DNA of 4,903 nucleotides from the IMG/VR virus record IMGVR_UViG_2706794696_000005; one strand, written 5' to 3'. Source of the stretch: a virus. Its lineage: Duplodnaviria > Heunggongvirae > Uroviricota > Caudoviricetes. Below the pieces are notes generated by a model that worked only from the letters and a program-made list of their open reading frames with translations, made no database searches and was not told the origin of the DNA. Positions 57 to 4,903 of the stretch are shown in pieces; within the stretch, counting starts at the first letter, position 1; every line of letters starts with the position of its first letter. The position numbers and the translations under genes were made by a program.

Positions 57-410
57 TTAAAAAAAGAACAAATGGTAGTGTCCGCTATTGCCAGTACACC
101 TCAATTGCTCTGCGGCTTCGCTCAGAGCTGGCGTATGTTCCCGGCCTACTGATTCACACAGGTAATCAACGAAACCGGACACCAGTTTTCGTTCGCGAGG
201 CGTGATCGCCCCACCGACCGGAGTCCAGTAATCGAAACCCAGTTGCAGGAGTTTGAAAAAACGCTTGTGGAATGCGTAGTTACACACACGCTTAAAGTCT
301 GCGTGTATCCACTCACCTATTTTGATTTGATGCAGAAAATCGCAACTCTCCGGCGTCGCCGGGAGAAGTAATCCGGAAGAGGTTTGTTTGACCAGTTGTA
401 TATGTGCCAT
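57..410 (-). CDS. Hypothetical protein, about 117 aa, second gene of a small two-gene unit downstream of hok
   Basis: Open frame on minus strand ending at TAA 59..57. ATG at 410..408 is preceded by GGAGAA about 7 nt upstream. The ORF track extends to a TTG at 452 that overlaps the upstream stop; the ATG start is preferred. No family recognised. Confidence 0.5.
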   Translation of the reverse strand: MAHIQLVKQTSSGLLLPATPESCDFLHQIKIGEWIHADFKRVCNYAFHKRFFKLLQLGFDYWTPVGGAITPRERKLVSGFVDYLCESVGREHTPALSEAAEQLRCTGNSGHYHLFFF

Positions 411-448
411 CGGCTTTCTCCGGTGGCACGGTGTTACACAGCAGGAGT

Positions 449-736
449 TCAATCCTGCTCAAGATTGTAGATGAGTTTATTCTTCAGCAAAAGCAGAAAA
501 CCAGCCTTAAAACCAATCTCTTTCAAAACCCGTAATGATGTGACAAATTCGTCCTCACGCAAAATAAAACCGTCCGTCAGAAGTCCATTACAAAAATAAA
601 ATAACACAGCACCGCTCTTCCTTTGTTGAGATTGCAAACATCTAATGCGGCAATGGCTGACAATCGCTCCATTCTCAACGCGCACAGCATAGAGGCCATT
701 TTCACTAAAAATTTCACGCAATTCTTCGATTTTCAT
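449..736 (-). CDS. Hypothetical protein, 95 aa
   Basis: ATG at 736..734 preceded by GAAGGA Shine-Dalgarno-like motif; TGA stop at 451..449. Sits downstream of a predicted promoter and is followed closely by the 57..410 gene. No family recognised. Confidence 0.5.
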   Translation of the reverse strand: MKIEELREIFSENGLYAVRVENGAIVSHCRIRCLQSQQRKSGAVLFYFCNGLLTDGFILREDEFVTSLRVLKEIGFKAGFLLLLKNKLIYNLEQD

Positions 737-1163: not shown

Positions 1164-1725
1164 NNNNNNNNNNNNNNNNNNNNNNNNNNNNNNNNNNNNN
1201 NNNNNNNNNNNNNNNNNNNNNNNNNNNNNNNNNNNNNNNNNNNNNNNNNNNNNNNNNNNNNNNNNNNNNNNNNNNNNNNNNNNNNNNNNNNNNNNNNNNN
1301 NNNNNNNNNNNNNNNNNNNNNNNNNNNNNNNNNNNNNNNNNNNNNNNNNNNNNNNNNNNNNNNNNNNNNNNNNNNNNNNNNNNNNNNNNNNNNNNNNNNN
1401 NNNNNNNNNNNNNNNNNNNNNNNNNNNNNNNNNNNNNNNNNNNNNNNNNNNNNNNNNNNNNNNNNNNNNNNNNNNNNNNNNNNNNNNNNNNNNNNNNNNN
1501 NNNNNNNNNNNNNNNNNNNNNNNNNNNNNNNNNNNNNNNNNNNNNNNNNNNNNNNNNNNNNNNNNNNNNNNNNNNNNNNNNNNNNNNNNNNNNNNNNNNN
1601 NNNNNNNNNNNNNNNNNNNNNNNNNNNNNNNNNNNNNNNNNNNNNNNNNNNNNNNNNNNNNNNNNNNNNNNNNNNNNNNNNNNNNNNNNNNNNNNNNNNN
1701 NNNNNNNNNNNNNNNNNNNNNNNNN
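1164..1725. other. Assembly gap or masked sequence (562 N)
   Basis: Uninterrupted run of N. All ORF-track translation through this span (runs of X) is artefact. It removes the 3' end of the QueH-like gene and the entire 5' leader of the hok locus. Confidence 0.95.
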
Positions 1726-2370
1726 GATAAGAGGGCGTCCCTGAGATTTGCGGTGTAGATTGGTATCGCGCAGAGAATACACACAGCCACAATATTCCTG
1801 CTGATAGAATTTTTCGCGCTTGCTGATTTCAATCATACGGGACGAGCCGCCCTGCTTGCGCCAGTTATAATCCCAGTACACCATGCCCGGATAATGCGCG
1901 ACGGCTCGCCGCCCACAGTCGTTAACCTGCTGCATATTTTTCCAGCGTGAAATGCCCAGTGAACTGCTGATCACACTGAAACCATTTTCAGCGGCGTACA
2001 GCGCTGTCCGCTCAAAACGCATGTCAAAACACATGGTGCAACGGATCCCTCGTTCGGGCTCCCATTCCATTCCTTTGGCTCGTTCAAACCAGTTGTCTGT
2101 GTCGTAATCAGCATCAATAAACGGCACGCCGTGTTGTTCAGCAAAGCGAATATTCTCATCCTTACGAATTAAATACTCTTTCTGAGGATGAATGTTCGGG
2201 TTGTAGAAAAAGATGGTGTAGTCGATTCCCGAGGCCTGAAGCGCCTCCATCACCTCACCGGAACATGGAGCACAGCAAGAGTGCAGTAGTAGTTTGTTTG
2301 CCCCGTTTGGGAGCTCCAATTTGGGCCGTTTGAAATCAGCAACTGTCATAAATATGTTTATTGGGGTCAT
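1726..2370 (-). CDS. QueH-family (DUF208) putative epoxyqueuosine reductase-like Fe-S protein; 3' end truncated by the gap
   Basis: 215 codons visible. Motifs [22 protein letters not shown] and YCGCVYSLR match the conserved Cys motifs of QueH/DUF208 as I recall them. Start is ATG at 2370 or the in-frame ATG at 2349; neither has a good Shine-Dalgarno sequence. The stop is expected within the first part of the gap. Confidence 0.75.
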
Positions 2371-2489: not shown

Positions 2490-2518
2490 ATTAAATTTTT
2501 AACAGTGCTAAATTTAAT
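2490..2518. repeat. AT-rich inverted repeat (9-bp arms, 11-nt spacer)
   Basis: ATTAAATTT (2490..2498) and AAATTTAAT (2510..2518) are perfect reverse complements, directly abutting the stop of the 2518..2931 gene and at the start of the 147-nt gap upstream of the QueH-like gene. Candidate operator or weak terminator. Confidence 0.35.
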
Positions 2519-2931
2519 TATTCAGTTCTGGATTTTGTCGCCCTGCGTATCCGCGCTTTCGCGTTACGCTCAATCTGTATCAGCTTTTCTATATTTCTCC
2601 GCCTTTCCTGTTCCTCCTGGCGCAATAGCCTTACATCATCTGCCAGTCTGGTTTCTCTTTTTGCCACAGAGAGCATCCAGTCAAACGGCTCCACAACCGC
2701 ACCGCAGATTTTACAGCGGACCTGACGCTCTTTTTCGTCAACCCGTACAGAGGCGTGATGGCAATATGGTCTTTCCGATGGCTCATAAAGAAAATTAACC
2801 TGATTACGAGGGTCATCCTCTTTTACCGGAAATAAAACGATATTGCTTAACTCATCTTCTGGTTTTATTTCCATGCTCCTCTCCTTTGATGCGAATGCCA
2901 GCGGTAATTGAAGCCTGATAGCTAATTTCAT
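2518..2931 (-). CDS. Hypothetical protein with putative zinc-ribbon (C-H-H ... C-x-x-C) and basic C-terminal tail
   Basis: ATG at 2931..2929 directly follows the upstream gene's TGA (TGAATG junction). An alternative internal ATG at 2874 has AAGGAG 6 nt upstream and would give a 118-aa product. Sequence contains CHH ... CKIC and an Arg/Glu-rich C-terminus. No family recognised. Confidence 0.55.
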   Translation of the reverse strand: MKLAIRLQLPLAFASKERSMEIKPEDELSNIVLFPVKEDDPRNQVNFLYEPSERPYCHHASVRVDEKERQVRCKICGAVVEPFDWMLSVAKRETRLADDVRLLRQEEQERRRNIEKLIQIERNAKARIRRATKSRTE

Positions 2932-3354
2932 TCACAGTATCGCCTCCTGAAAATTACCCTGATAGAAAGCCAGTACACGCTGCATAGCTTCGCTCTTCCG
3001 GCACTCGCGACAGATTATATTCAGGCGCCTGTCGTAGCGGCGTATTTCTCCGTCAGGTAATGACCAGATAAGGTCCGGATCAACAACAACCGGTTTCCTC
3101 ACCTTTACTCTCGAGAGTTTTTTGCGGGCGCTTTGCCAGTCCTTGCGAGCCTGTTCAGACGGGAATAAGCCGTAGCCAGAATTATATACATCACCACTTG
3201 CGACCAGTTCTATGCATAAGCGACCGACAGACGCACGACTGATACCTGTTTCATCTGACAACTGCCGAATCGTGACCCGACCGTCCTGATGCACGAGTTC
3301 CACAATTCGCGTCTTCAGTTCTTCCCGCTGTTCGGGAGTAAAAGGTTTCGCCAT
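2932..3354 (-). CDS. Putative winged-helix / HTH DNA-binding protein, 140 aa
   Basis: ATG at 3354..3352 with AGGAGG immediately upstream. N-terminal region (VTIRQLSDETGISRASVGRLCIELVASGDV) has the pattern of a winged-helix HTH. C-terminal part contains a CxxC pair. Exact family not recognised. Confidence 0.65.
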   Translation of the reverse strand: MAKPFTPEQREELKTRIVELVHQDGRVTIRQLSDETGISRASVGRLCIELVASGDVYNSGYGLFPSEQARKDWQSARKKLSRVKVRKPVVVDPDLIWSLPDGEIRRYDRRLNIICRECRKSEAMQRVLAFYQGNFQEAIL

Positions 3355-3368
3355 AAATCCTCCTGAAA

Positions 3369-4115
3369 CTACTTAACAACCCTCGAATGGCTAACATTCG
3401 GACGCCAGCTCTCCCAGTTAAAATTCACCCAGCGCCCGCCGTTCATGACCATGCGATCCATCACCCGCTCGCCGAGCAATGTTTTCATCACCTCATAGTT
3501 CAGGTTTGTCAGCATCCCCACGCTGCGCATCGACGCTGTCCGGCGATCAACAATCTGGTGCAGCACCACCTGCTCGTTTTTCGTCTCGCGCTGAATGCCA
3601 ATTTCATCAAGAACCAGCAGATCCACTTCGCACAGCTCCCGCAAAAATTTTTCGCCTGACTGCCCGTCGTCATAGCTGGCGTGCAGGGCGCTCATAACAT
3701 CAGCCACGGTAACCACAATCACTGTCTGACCGTCTTTCAGCAGGCGATTCCCGATAGCTGCCGCTAAGTGATTCTTCCCGGTACCAGGTTTTCCGCTGAA
3801 CGCAAAATTTGTACACCCGGTCATCAGTTCATCGGCGATGGATTTCGCCTGGCTTAACGCGTATCGCTGGCCGTCGTTCTGCACCTGGTAATTCGCAAAC
3901 GAGCATTTACGGTGCAACGGCTGGATGCCTGAGCGATTCAGAATTTTTTCCACCCGCAACTGGCGATTCAGGCGGTTGATCTCCTCGCTACGTTTCTGGC
4001 CTTCAGCAAGTTGCCACTCGCGCCACTCCGCTACCGTTCTGAATGGGGCGGTTACATGTGGCGGGGTCAGTCGGCGGATGCGTTCCAGAACGCCGCCTGT
4101 CGCAATATTTTTCAT
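3369..4115 (-). CDS. DnaC-like replicative helicase loader (AAA+ ATPase, IstB/DnaC family), prophage paralogue
   Basis: 248 aa with Walker A GKPGTGKN and Walker B DLLVLDEIG. Long blocks resemble host E. coli DnaC (FSGKPGTGKNHLAAAI, MLTNLN, LLGERVMDRM). ATG at 4115 with AGGGGG upstream. Comparable to prophage DnaC paralogues such as Rac YdaV. Confidence 0.9.
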   Translation of the reverse strand: MKNIATGGVLERIRRLTPPHVTAPFRTVAEWREWQLAEGQKRSEEINRLNRQLRVEKILNRSGIQPLHRKCSFANYQVQNDGQRYALSQAKSIADELMTGCTNFAFSGKPGTGKNHLAAAIGNRLLKDGQTVIVVTVADVMSALHASYDDGQSGEKFLRELCEVDLLVLDEIGIQRETKNEQVVLHQIVDRRTASMRSVGMLTNLNYEVMKTLLGERVMDRMVMNGGRWVNFNWESWRPNVSHSRVVK

Positions 4116-4121
4116 GGTCCG

Positions 4122-4824
4122 TTACCCCCTGAAGCCTGGCGGGATCGCACTGTCCGGCAACGAGACGGTGTTAACCTGTCGGAGCAACGTCTCAGGCCGA
4201 ACACCTTTCGGCGCGAACAGGCCCTGGTATTCATTGGCGATGCTGTGTCGAATCACCTGCTCAGGTGTAAAACCCTGCTGACGGAATTTTTCCAGTTCCC
4301 GTATCGCCCCGTTAGCGCCCTGCTCCGTTCGAATCGGTTTTCGCAATGCCTGTCTGAACCGGACCCACTCATGCCAGAGTGTTTCCGGCAACCAATCGGG
4401 CAGCTCAATAGCCTCCGGCTCGAATTTTTTAGACGCTCGTTTTTGGCGAGGGGGAGATCAGTATTTAGATCTTCCTCTTCCTCTTCCTCTGGTAACGCTT
4501 TTTGATCCGTTTGTGTAACGCTGGCAGCGTTACCTTTTCGTTTCAGTTCGCGTATTTTTGTTACTCGCTCGTTTGTAACCGCCCGTTTTTTTTAGAGCTT
4601 TTTCCGTTATGACGTTCAAAGTTAGGTAGAGAAAGCCCTCCGTCATTTTCGACCAGCCATCCAACCTGAATTAACGCATCAGCAAAACCAGACATAAAAG
4701 TGATGCGATCTATTGCACTTTTTGTAACGCCGCGAGCGTTACAATCTGCATTACCGTCTATCATTTGTTGATCCGCCCATGCCCAGAAGCGAATAACCTG
4801 AGGTAGCCTGAGTTTAACGGACAC
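4122..4824 (-). pseudogene. O-like phage replication initiator / replisome organiser, disrupted (three reading frames; 5' end abutted by an IS)
   Basis: An N-terminal segment (4561..4824), an acidic middle segment with EEEEEE, and a C-terminal segment (4122..4391) lie in three different frames. They join into one protein of about 230 aa if one A is added in each of two A-runs (A8 at 4586..4593, A6 at 4425..4430). The apparent GTG start at 4824 falls inside the predicted IS end. Confidence 0.55.
4491..4593. repeat. Iteron-like repeat cluster plus A/T tract inside the replication gene; candidate prophage origin
   Basis: Perfect 19-bp palindrome GTAACGCTG-G-CAGCGTTAC (4515..4533). GTAAC/GTTAC cores recur five times within 4492..4579, with a CGTTTGT..AAC direct repeat (4508.. 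and 4569..), followed by a T8 tract at 4586..4593. Lambdoid origins lie inside the O gene linker with this organisation. Confidence 0.35.
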
Positions 4825-4903
4825 TCCTTCCTGAAATAGAATGGCATCAGAAGGAGCTAATAATGAGCAGAAAAACCCAACGTTACTCTAAAGAGTTCAA
4901 AGC
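4799..4903 (+). mobile_element. Probable left end of an IS3-family insertion sequence (IS600-like), continuing beyond the window
   Basis: Candidate terminus TGAGGTAGCCTGAG at 4799 (alternatively TGAG at 4809), about 55-65 nt upstream of a plus-strand ATG (4863) with AAGGAG RBS. The encoded peptide MSRKTQRYSKEFK fits the conserved N-terminus of IS3-family OrfA transposases, and IS600 OrfA as I recall it. Boundary is approximate. Confidence 0.45.
4863..4903 (+). CDS. IS3-family transposase OrfA, N-terminal 13 codons only
   Basis: AAGGAG (4851..4856), 6-nt spacer, ATG at 4863; translation MSRKTQRYSKEFK runs off the window edge. The R-x-Y-S-x-E-F-K pattern is typical of IS3-family OrfA. Too short to be certain. 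Confidence 0.45.
   Translation, partial: MSRKTQRYSKEFK

Follow-up and report, generated by a model that had tools for sequence, protein, structure and literature searches.

The 4,903-nucleotide (nt) stretch of Caudoviricetes DNA analyzed here (IMG/VR record IMGVR_UViG_2706794696_000005; hereafter the window) carries the remnant of a Rac-like prophage replication-initiator gene that holds repeated copies of a heptamer, GTAACGC, and of its inverse, GCGTTAC. In the homologs of this gene the heptamers are constrained at the nucleotide level, occupy fixed positions with fixed phasing, and change in concert with the N-terminal domain (N-domain) of the encoded protein. On this comparative sequence evidence we consider it probable that the repeats are binding sites for the initiator N-domain and that, together with an adjoining purine tract, they form a phage replication origin inside the initiator's own gene. 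Reading the assembly as an origin is supported by the typing of the protein as a replication initiator (phrog_2509) and by the DnaC-like gene that lies downstream. The window copy of the initiator gene is itself a pseudogene in a decaying prophage.

The repeats of the window are arranged in two intragenic clusters (Table 1). The core of the cluster in the linker-coding region (cluster B) is a perfect 19-bp palindrome, GTAACGCTG-G-CAGCGTTAC, and the last heptamer of this cluster starts 23 bp past the second palindrome arm on the gene strand. A first-pass annotation of the window had drawn attention to this palindrome and to five GTAAC/GTTAC cores in 4491-4593 as a candidate origin. Both are present, with the cores at 4492 (+), 4515 (+), 4529 (-), 4560 (-) and 4575 (+); the family-wide heptamer covers only three of the five (4492, 4515 and 4529). 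At the position of the remaining two, a full GCGTTAC (gene nt 335) is present in part of the homologs and there is no site in the others, so that these pentamer-only cores are lineage-specific and may be auxiliary or degenerate sites. A CGTTTGT(GT)AAC direct repeat described in the same annotation does exist at 4507-4519 and 4569-4579, but it is imperfect, with a 2-nt indel. The flanking T-runs it listed (4499-4503, 4555-4559, 4586-4593 and 4599-4603) are likewise real, but they are lysine codons, and the T8 run among them is a frameshift mutation relative to T6 in intact homologs. The mutational nature of T8, the pyrimidine run at 4470-4490 and a second palindrome at 4722-4744 had been missed. 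This second palindrome, TTGTAACGC-N5-GCGTTACAA, belongs to cluster A, whose third, in-phase copy is degenerate in the window, reading GCATTAC at 4748-4754 through a single G-to-A change where intact relatives have GCGTTAC.

The repeat pattern in the window exceeds chance: GTAACGC is found six times against 0.42 expected, a count reached in none of 200 shuffles, and GTAAC 15 times against 5.2 expected. One extra GCGTTAC is located at 2561-2567, within a zinc-ribbon open reading frame (ORF) about 2.3 kb downstream of the would-be intact gene start; single downstream heptamers also occur in close relatives (L003 at +2327 and L105 at 11115), but in other genes, and the window copy is probably due to chance. 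Cluster B also contains a GATC at 4504 (GATCAAAAAGCGTTACC), which is kept in most enteric homologs and absent from the Pseudomonas, Xanthomonas and Ralstonia versions; a link of the GATC sites to Dam/SeqA is possible.

Homologs down to ~30% identity were gathered by protein search and by scans of genome and viral collections. The first scan of viral contigs returned near-identical relatives only (95-99%), which are of no use in a conservation test, and the second was led by epsilon15. Within the group that carries GTAACGC, we compared 17 diverged chromosomal loci and five phages of Escherichia, Xanthomonas, Pseudomonas and Ralstonia hosts (TL-2011b, Xanthomonas CP2, Pseudomonas VW-6S and PAN70, and Ralstonia YL1). 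Across these genes GTAACGC/GCGTTAC is found at fixed positions, at nt 149, 161 and 173 in cluster A and at nt ~335-430 in cluster B, and the 19-bp palindrome of cluster B is kept at the equivalent gene position in diverged homologs. Adjacent heptamers are exactly 12 bp apart in 60 of 82 pairs. The usual order is one to three GTAACGC, then GCGTTAC, then a further GCGTTAC 23 bp on, and the conserved arrangement is GCGTTACC followed by a purine run. Alignment with homologs had been proposed as a check in the first-pass annotation, with homologs devoid of the pattern as the outcome that would speak against it; the pattern is instead conserved at the DNA level and at fixed positions.

Two carriers on contigs assigned to very distant phyla, a Novipirellula rosea contig (L020) and an Ignavibacteriae metagenome-assembled genome (L021), share 44-54% identity and have GTAACGC palindromes at equivalent positions; either the module has a very wide host range or these contigs are contaminated or mis-binned. 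One related phage, complete at 38.7 kb, has 12 heptamers, eight of them within a 440-bp segment at the beginning and in the interior of the initiator gene. Their absence from the repressor/cro spacer and the terminase region of this phage rules out a role as immunity operators or as a packaging site.

Several tests separate the constraint on the DNA from that on the protein. Synonymous-codon shuffles that kept the protein and the codon pool produced about one heptamer per gene, compared with the five to eight observed in 15 of 17 genes, and the excess over the shuffles was significant in every gene (P <= 0.006 in 17/17). For the codon test, codons were picked solely from the surrounding protein sequence, namely the dipeptides N-A and V-T within the two regions, and compared with the rest of the same genes. 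All 33 Gly residues before N-A have GGT (26% elsewhere), all 13 Ser residues before N-A have AGT (16% elsewhere) and all 23 Ser residues before V-T have AGC (23% elsewhere); Val at the motif is GTT in 47 of 52 cases (29% elsewhere) and Asn is AAC in 59 of 66 (57% elsewhere). The residue preceding Asn is limited to Cys, Gly and Ser, all with xGT codons. Because codon choice is forced and this residue varies only among xGT codons, it follows that the DNA is held fixed at the motif and that the protein adapts to the DNA. The claim of the first-pass annotation that the repeats are not explained by coding needs is thus borne out by the shuffles and the forced codons. That the protein requires a repeated peptide, x-N-A-x-x-V-T, with the likeness of the DNA as a by-product, is scarcely credible even though peptides of the form G-N-A-x-S-V-T do recur in the protein alignment. 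The codons are fixed far beyond their usage elsewhere in the same genes, the spacer ahead of the initiator gene, which is non-coding, contains heptamers as well, and the peptide is predicted to sit in a low-confidence loop and a disordered linker. A coding artefact and chance are both ruled out by the enrichment in the window, the synonymous shuffles and the forced codons.

Further evidence comes from the way in which the site sequence switches between subfamilies. The most frequent 6-mer was sought without bias in each subfamily, with both orientations pooled. It is GTAACG/GCGTTA in the GTAACGC group. In epsilon15, phiPSA1, a Phycisphaerae contig and ~45 of the 49 distinct epsilon15-like viral-contig genes it is GTCCGC/GCGGAC, at gene nt 55, 66, 79 and 101 and at ~334-390. 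Ralstonia phage Raharianne has GTAGAC/GTCTAC and a Vibrio phage GTCACA/TGTGAC. Each subfamily hexamer forms two clusters at equivalent places in the gene, and GTAACGC, GTCCGC, GTAGAC and GTCACA each go, in both clusters, with a distinct type of N-domain. The YdaU protein of the K-12 Rac prophage has a C-terminal domain (C-domain) that is 83% identical, but it has a DUF1376 N-domain and its gene has no GTAAC sites. Carriers of the same heptamer, for their part, pair with differing C-domains, loaders and neighboring genes. The sites track the N-domain, rather than the C-domain or the neighboring genes, and since they follow this domain and not the rest of the module, the N-domain is their likely reader; concerted change of site and N-domain is the pattern expected in that case.

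These data also bear on whether another protein binds the sites, be it of host origin or a second product of the phage that moves along with the N-domain module. Such a binder would be compatible with the comparisons, which establish the co-occurrence of sites and N-domain, but we regard it as improbable. The neighbors of genes with the same heptamer vary (KilAC/P-like, DnaC plus DnaB, methylase, DUF977), and the heptamer itself is constant across Enterobacteriaceae, Xanthomonas, Ralstonia and a planctomycete contig. Conversely, within one host group (Salmonella/E. coli), different N-domains occur with different hexamers, GTAACGC and GTCCGC. The K-12 ydaU gene (L115, locus 2120-2977) has a repeat of its own, ATGTTCAAA, at three positions (gene nt 148, 392 and 426), with an inverted copy at 452; laid out as in the window gene, this repeat is a candidate for the sites of oriJ.

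Directly after the last heptamer of cluster B, the gene strand consists of purines only, and 17 of 21 homologs have an uninterrupted stretch of 12-33 purines there. Enteric Rac-like genes have a tract of the form (GAGGAA)n, translated as EEEEEE; those from Xanthomonas, Pseudomonas and Ralstonia, like the epsilon15 group, have AGAGAAGAGAAGAGAAGAGAAGA, (AGAGA)n, translated as REEKRRE. The repeat unit of AGAGAAGAGAAGAGAAGAGAAGA is 5 nt, a length that codon periodicity cannot produce, and Arg in the tract is encoded by AGA in 135 of 135 cases, against 9.6% elsewhere (45 distinct genes, 49-64% GC). Because of the 5-nt unit and the exclusive use of AGA, the purine tract is a nucleotide-level element common to subfamilies with different site sequences, and it may be the zone of opening or loading. 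An AT-rich unwinding element, as proposed in the first-pass annotation, is not found in the window, where the AT content reaches at most 63% per 30 bp against a background of 50%; what is conserved is the purine-only tract. Just past it in the direction of the gene is a short, moderately AT-rich patch, and over the homologs the AT content averages 68-69% at +10 to +35 from the tract start (a patch of ~20 bp).

Many E. coli and Salmonella initiators (P0015-P0058, 376-380 amino acids (aa)) contain an in-frame linker insert of ~114 aa shortly after the purine tract. The sole Pfam signal in this insert is a faint match to the restriction-endonuclease-like family REase_MTES_1575 (E 0.13), and the insert is possibly a mobile, nuclease-like element sitting at the putative origin.

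A more far-reaching proposal, which we put forward tentatively and think doubtful, is that these genes represent a large undescribed class of temperate-phage origins that open at the conserved purine tract, (AGAGA)n or (GAGGAA)n, and not at an AT-rich element. Its range, as seen here, would take in phages and prophage-like contigs of Enterobacteriaceae, Pseudomonas, Xanthomonas, Ralstonia and Vibrio, together with contigs assigned to Planctomycetota. The tract in such origins may be an R-loop- or triplex-prone zone, or a single-strand landing site for the DnaT-like C-domain; if the latter is true, the landing of this domain on the tract would tie phage initiation to helicase loading of the primosome type.

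The symmetry of the sites raises the question of whether they act as hairpins in RNA or single-stranded DNA, be it as mRNA structure for translation or stability, as an antisense terminator or as a hairpin of the primosome-assembly type. Palindromic symmetry does survive the change of sequence between subfamilies, the epsilon15 layout of two direct and then two inverted copies could be folded as one long interrupted hairpin, and a pattern scan lists the palindrome with its T-rich tail as terminator-like on the antisense strand. We nevertheless hold this explanation to have little probability. Direct and inverted copies do not balance: for example, two or three GTAACGC face a single GCGTTAC, and an isolated GCGTTACC follows 23 bp on. 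Within a subfamily the arms never vary and show no compensatory drift, whereas the 5-nt spacers change freely; and a hairpin does not need the strict 12-bp phasing of direct copies.

Many homologs have a third element, a palindrome of GTAACGC heptamers that precedes the start codon by 13-41 bp. L011-L013, L015, L018, L020 and TL-2011b lack it; the two intragenic clusters occur throughout. The upstream palindrome resembles the inverted-repeat operators of iteron plasmids, and its place beside the ribosome-binding site, at 13-33 bp from the start codon in many homologs, would suit autoregulation, in which the repeats are operators only, the initiator or its dimer represses or roadblocks its own gene, and the origin is elsewhere. 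This we consider unlikely. The upstream palindrome is facultative whereas the intragenic clusters are not, a promoter-like site was looked for in the spacer ahead of the gene and not found, and the conserved purine tract beside the last site would have no role. Moreover, the 38.7-kb phage contains no other heptamer cluster that could serve the initiator as an origin. In phage 666R9 (L105, 8995-9016), a hairpin, TACCGAAC-tgtttt-GTTCGGTA, is located just before the upstream palindrome, between the cII-like and initiator genes, and has no T-run behind it on the sense strand.

The initiator belongs to a family recognized by PHROG rather than by Pfam. An intact homolog matches phrog_2509, 'replication initiation protein', over its full length (residues 1-262, E 9e-89), and one RefSeq record carries the name 'phage replication initiator YdaU family protein'. 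The match to phrog_678, 'replication initiation O-like' (E 2e-25), is confined to residues 85-236, leaving the N-domain outside, and that to phrog_4880, 'replisome organizer', is faint (E 0.0035). No Pfam family matched the reconstructed or the intact initiator, even at E <= 1, and none in NCBIfam scored above its cut-off. In relatives from epsilon15 and TL-2011b, the C-domain matches the Pfam DnaT DNA-binding domain (PF17948) with E values of 1e-12 and 1e-18, respectively; the Rac-like initiator has a weak match to the last 19 residues of DnaT only (NCBIfam, E 0.0048, below cut-off) and a weak hit to DnaT structure 2ru8 in a PDB profile search (E 0.62). In an AlphaFold model of the intact initiator (mean pLDDT, the per-residue confidence score, 68) only two domains are well modeled: a confidently predicted N-domain made of helices and a beta hairpin (aa 10-96) and, beyond a disordered linker (aa 97-159), a helical C-domain that is confident over ~aa 160-236, with helices at 176-225. 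The N-domain fold is consistent with a winged helix. Cluster A encodes a low-confidence loop (aa 49-60) of this model, and cluster B and the purine tract encode the disordered linker; loop and linker are, as modeled, places tolerant of DNA-level constraint.

Comparison with known origins reveals a shared plan and several differences. The lambda origin lies in the middle of gene O (PMC7466680). As in the lambdoid origins (ori-lambda, Stx phages and P22 gene 18), the repeats of the window are found mid-gene, in the linker between an origin-specific N-domain and a loader-recruiting C-domain; here, this placement follows from the position of cluster B in the modeled linker-coding region. The number of repeats varies among relatives, adding or removing amino acids, and the site sequence goes with the type of N-domain, as has been described for lambda (PMC7466680). 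The first-pass annotation had gone further and proposed a build of the lambdoid O type, which the comparison does not support. The window initiator has no detectable homology to lambda O and no N-domain of the Phage_rep_O type, its family being phrog_2509. Lambda has four to six tandem 19-bp iterons, each with internal dyad symmetry, whereas here there is one 19-bp palindrome per cluster together with single 7-bp units at 12 or 23 bp, direct and inverted copies being mixed. The present genes have, in addition, a cluster within the stretch that codes for the N-domain and, in many cases, another one ahead of the start codon. In place of the AT-rich block of lambda (~40 bp) there is the purine-only tract, and the partner gene is DnaC-like where lambda has P.

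In SPP1, oriL lies within gene 38 (PMC6316719). It resembles the arrangement described here in that the origin is in the gene of its binder, the replisome organizer G38P, with short protein-bound repeats and a helicase-loader gene next to it (PMC6316719). SPP1 differs in having direct repeats, an AT-rich unwinding element and a distant second origin, oriR; the window initiator has no match to Pfam Phage_rep_org_N, and an AT-rich element is missing here. We do not assign the window origin to either the lambda or the SPP1 family, because there is no homology, the site architecture differs and there is no AT-rich element. By analogy, an origin of the window type would nonetheless most likely work like lambda ori and SPP1 oriL.

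Iteron plasmids such as pPS10, F and R6K have phased origin repeats and an inverted repeat upstream of the initiator gene, and encode winged-helix Rep proteins; their iterons are 17-22 bp long and lie outside the rep gene, in origins with DnaA boxes and AT-rich repeats. The likeness to the present case is that one short sequence does double duty, in the phased repeats of the origin and in an inverted repeat that immediately precedes the initiator gene, along with a winged-helix-like domain, but no sequence similarity or significant fold similarity between the initiator and the plasmid Rep proteins was found here. Finally, the Rac prophage is stated to have an active origin, oriJ (PMC3945230). 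The window shares with oriJ of K-12 Rac the type of prophage, the ydaU-ydaV gene position and the C-domain; it differs in the unrelated DUF1376 N-domain of YdaU and in the K-12 repeat, ATGTTCAAA, that stands where GTAAC sites are missing. Identity with oriJ is ruled out by the different N-domain and the lack of GTAAC sites in K-12, and the window therefore represents another origin specificity.

Taken together, these comparisons suggest how such an origin would work in an intact phage. Initiators would occupy the linker cluster and the N-domain cluster, plus the upstream palindrome where present, and their occupancy would result in a nucleoprotein complex over ~450 bp. The DNA would open at or beside the purine tract, and the initiator C-domain would then recruit the phage DnaC-like loader and the host DnaB helicase. 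From the sequence, we infer the initiator as the binder, the complex as an origin and the place of melting. An origin within the initiator gene is well known; the present case varies this plan in the design of its heptamer sites and in its purine tract.

Several points weigh against reading the repeats as an origin bound by the initiator. The searchable literature, which leaves out most subscription journals, yielded no description of origin sites and no direct binding data for this initiator family. A Foldseek search against PDB gave no significant fold match, the best having an E value of 0.38 and the weak ones being mostly winged-helix. The usual AT-rich unwinding element is missing, the palindrome ahead of the start codon would fit an operator equally well, and the statistics count related sequences as independent. 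As the window initiator is a pseudogene, no function can be claimed for the window copy. The idea in the first-pass annotation of an origin inside the initiator gene thus gains from conservation and from N-domain-linked change of the sites, both as expected for an origin, and loses in that the gene is broken in the window.

The state of the window gene was established by three-frame translation and by a three-way alignment with two intact relatives, from which the lesions were read. The remnant runs through three frames (4798-4594, 4593-4449 and 4448-4125, with a stop codon at 4122-4124) and is without ~36 N-terminal codons. By megablast its DNA shows 93% identity to genes of 'Escherichia phage Rac' (MN652886; gene annotated ydaU) and vB_EcoS-666R9 (gene annotated 'DNA replication protein O'), both intact at 262 aa and both with a DnaC-like gene next downstream. 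Homology to the intact genes breaks at 4798/4799, where an insertion sequence (IS) has cut the 5' end. The left end of this IS, which we take to resemble IS600, is identical in >3000 E. coli genomes, where it is annotated 'transposase'; the exact IS/initiator junction was not found among complete E. coli genomes. Judging by the Shigella flexneri relatives that the searches recovered, the prophage probably comes from a Shigella-type genome. The insertion took away the initiator 5' end and the upstream palindrome. With this truncation, the T8 frameshift and a 10-bp deletion, the frame is not intact and the initiator gene is therefore a pseudogene. Both frameshift lesions, one in a homopolymer and one at a 10-bp direct repeat, could be real decay; the T8 run might also be a sequencing error in this single sequence. 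The cis sites have fared better: both intragenic clusters and the purine tract are intact, save for the G-to-A change at 4748-4754. As the initiator gene is dead and the upstream palindrome lost, the window copy is probably the relic of an origin whose general kind is known, and it could fire only with a related initiator supplied in trans.

Table 1. Positions of the repeat sites, lesions and genes in the window.
Feature	Position	Strand	Remarks	Basis
19-bp perfect palindrome, GTAACGC-N5-GCGTTAC	4515-4533		Core of linker cluster (cluster B)	
Last heptamer of cluster B	4492-4498		GCGTTAC on gene strand; directly abuts purine tract	
Pentamer-only cores	GTTAC 4560-4564, GTAAC 4575-4579		Plus-strand letters; within duplicated R-(A)-V-T coding stretch	
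Cluster A	4722-4754		Palindrome (4722-4744) and third in-phase copy (4748-4754); N-terminal-domain coding region	
Pyrimidine-only run, 21 nt	4470-4490	+	Gene strand is purine tract (GAGGAA)n, encoding EEEEEE; adjoins last heptamer	
Moderately AT-rich patch	4456-4471		Two GATC (4456, 4468); just past purine tract in gene direction	
Rac-like prophage replication-initiator remnant	4122..4798	-	Pseudogene	Three-frame translation, alignment
T8 homopolymer	4586-4593		+2 frameshift vs T6 in intact homologs	Alignment and frames
10-bp deletion junction	4448/4449		One copy of direct repeat AGGGGGATTT gone; second frameshift	Alignment
IS3-family insertion sequence, left end	4799-4903	+	TGAGGTAGCCTGAG...; transposase orfA start 4863 (MSRKTQRYSKEFK)	
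DnaC-like helicase-loader gene	3369-4115	-	Intact frame; directly downstream of initiator remnant; replication-module partner gene	
DUF977 gene	2932-3354	-		
Zinc-ribbon ORF	2518-2931	-		
QueH (epoxyqueuosine reductase) homolog	1738-2370	-	Inside prophage	
N-masked run, 562 bases	1164-1725		Interrupts window	
DUF1367 gene	57-452	-		

All genes of the prophage in the window are on the minus strand (Table 1). The DnaC-like loader protein matches Pfam IstB_IS21 (E 1e-19) and the Bac_DnaA ATPase (E 2.5e-8), and its gene is annotated ydaV/DnaC-like in related phages. The QueH homolog adjoins the N-masked run, and its 3' end runs into the masked stretch.

For the window alone the meaning of these observations is modest: it is a decayed prophage in which the putative origin sites have outlived the initiator gene. 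For the family, the sites illustrate how a DNA signal may dictate amino acids in the loop and linker of its own reader protein, and in practical terms they would allow origins to be annotated in many prophages. If confirmed, the findings would provide the origin and the recognition code for a widespread initiator family that has neither a Pfam family nor a mapped origin, as well as a natural series of initiator/site specificity switches, with four site types on one protein scaffold, and they would hint at origins built with a purine-only tract in the place of the AT-rich unwinding element.

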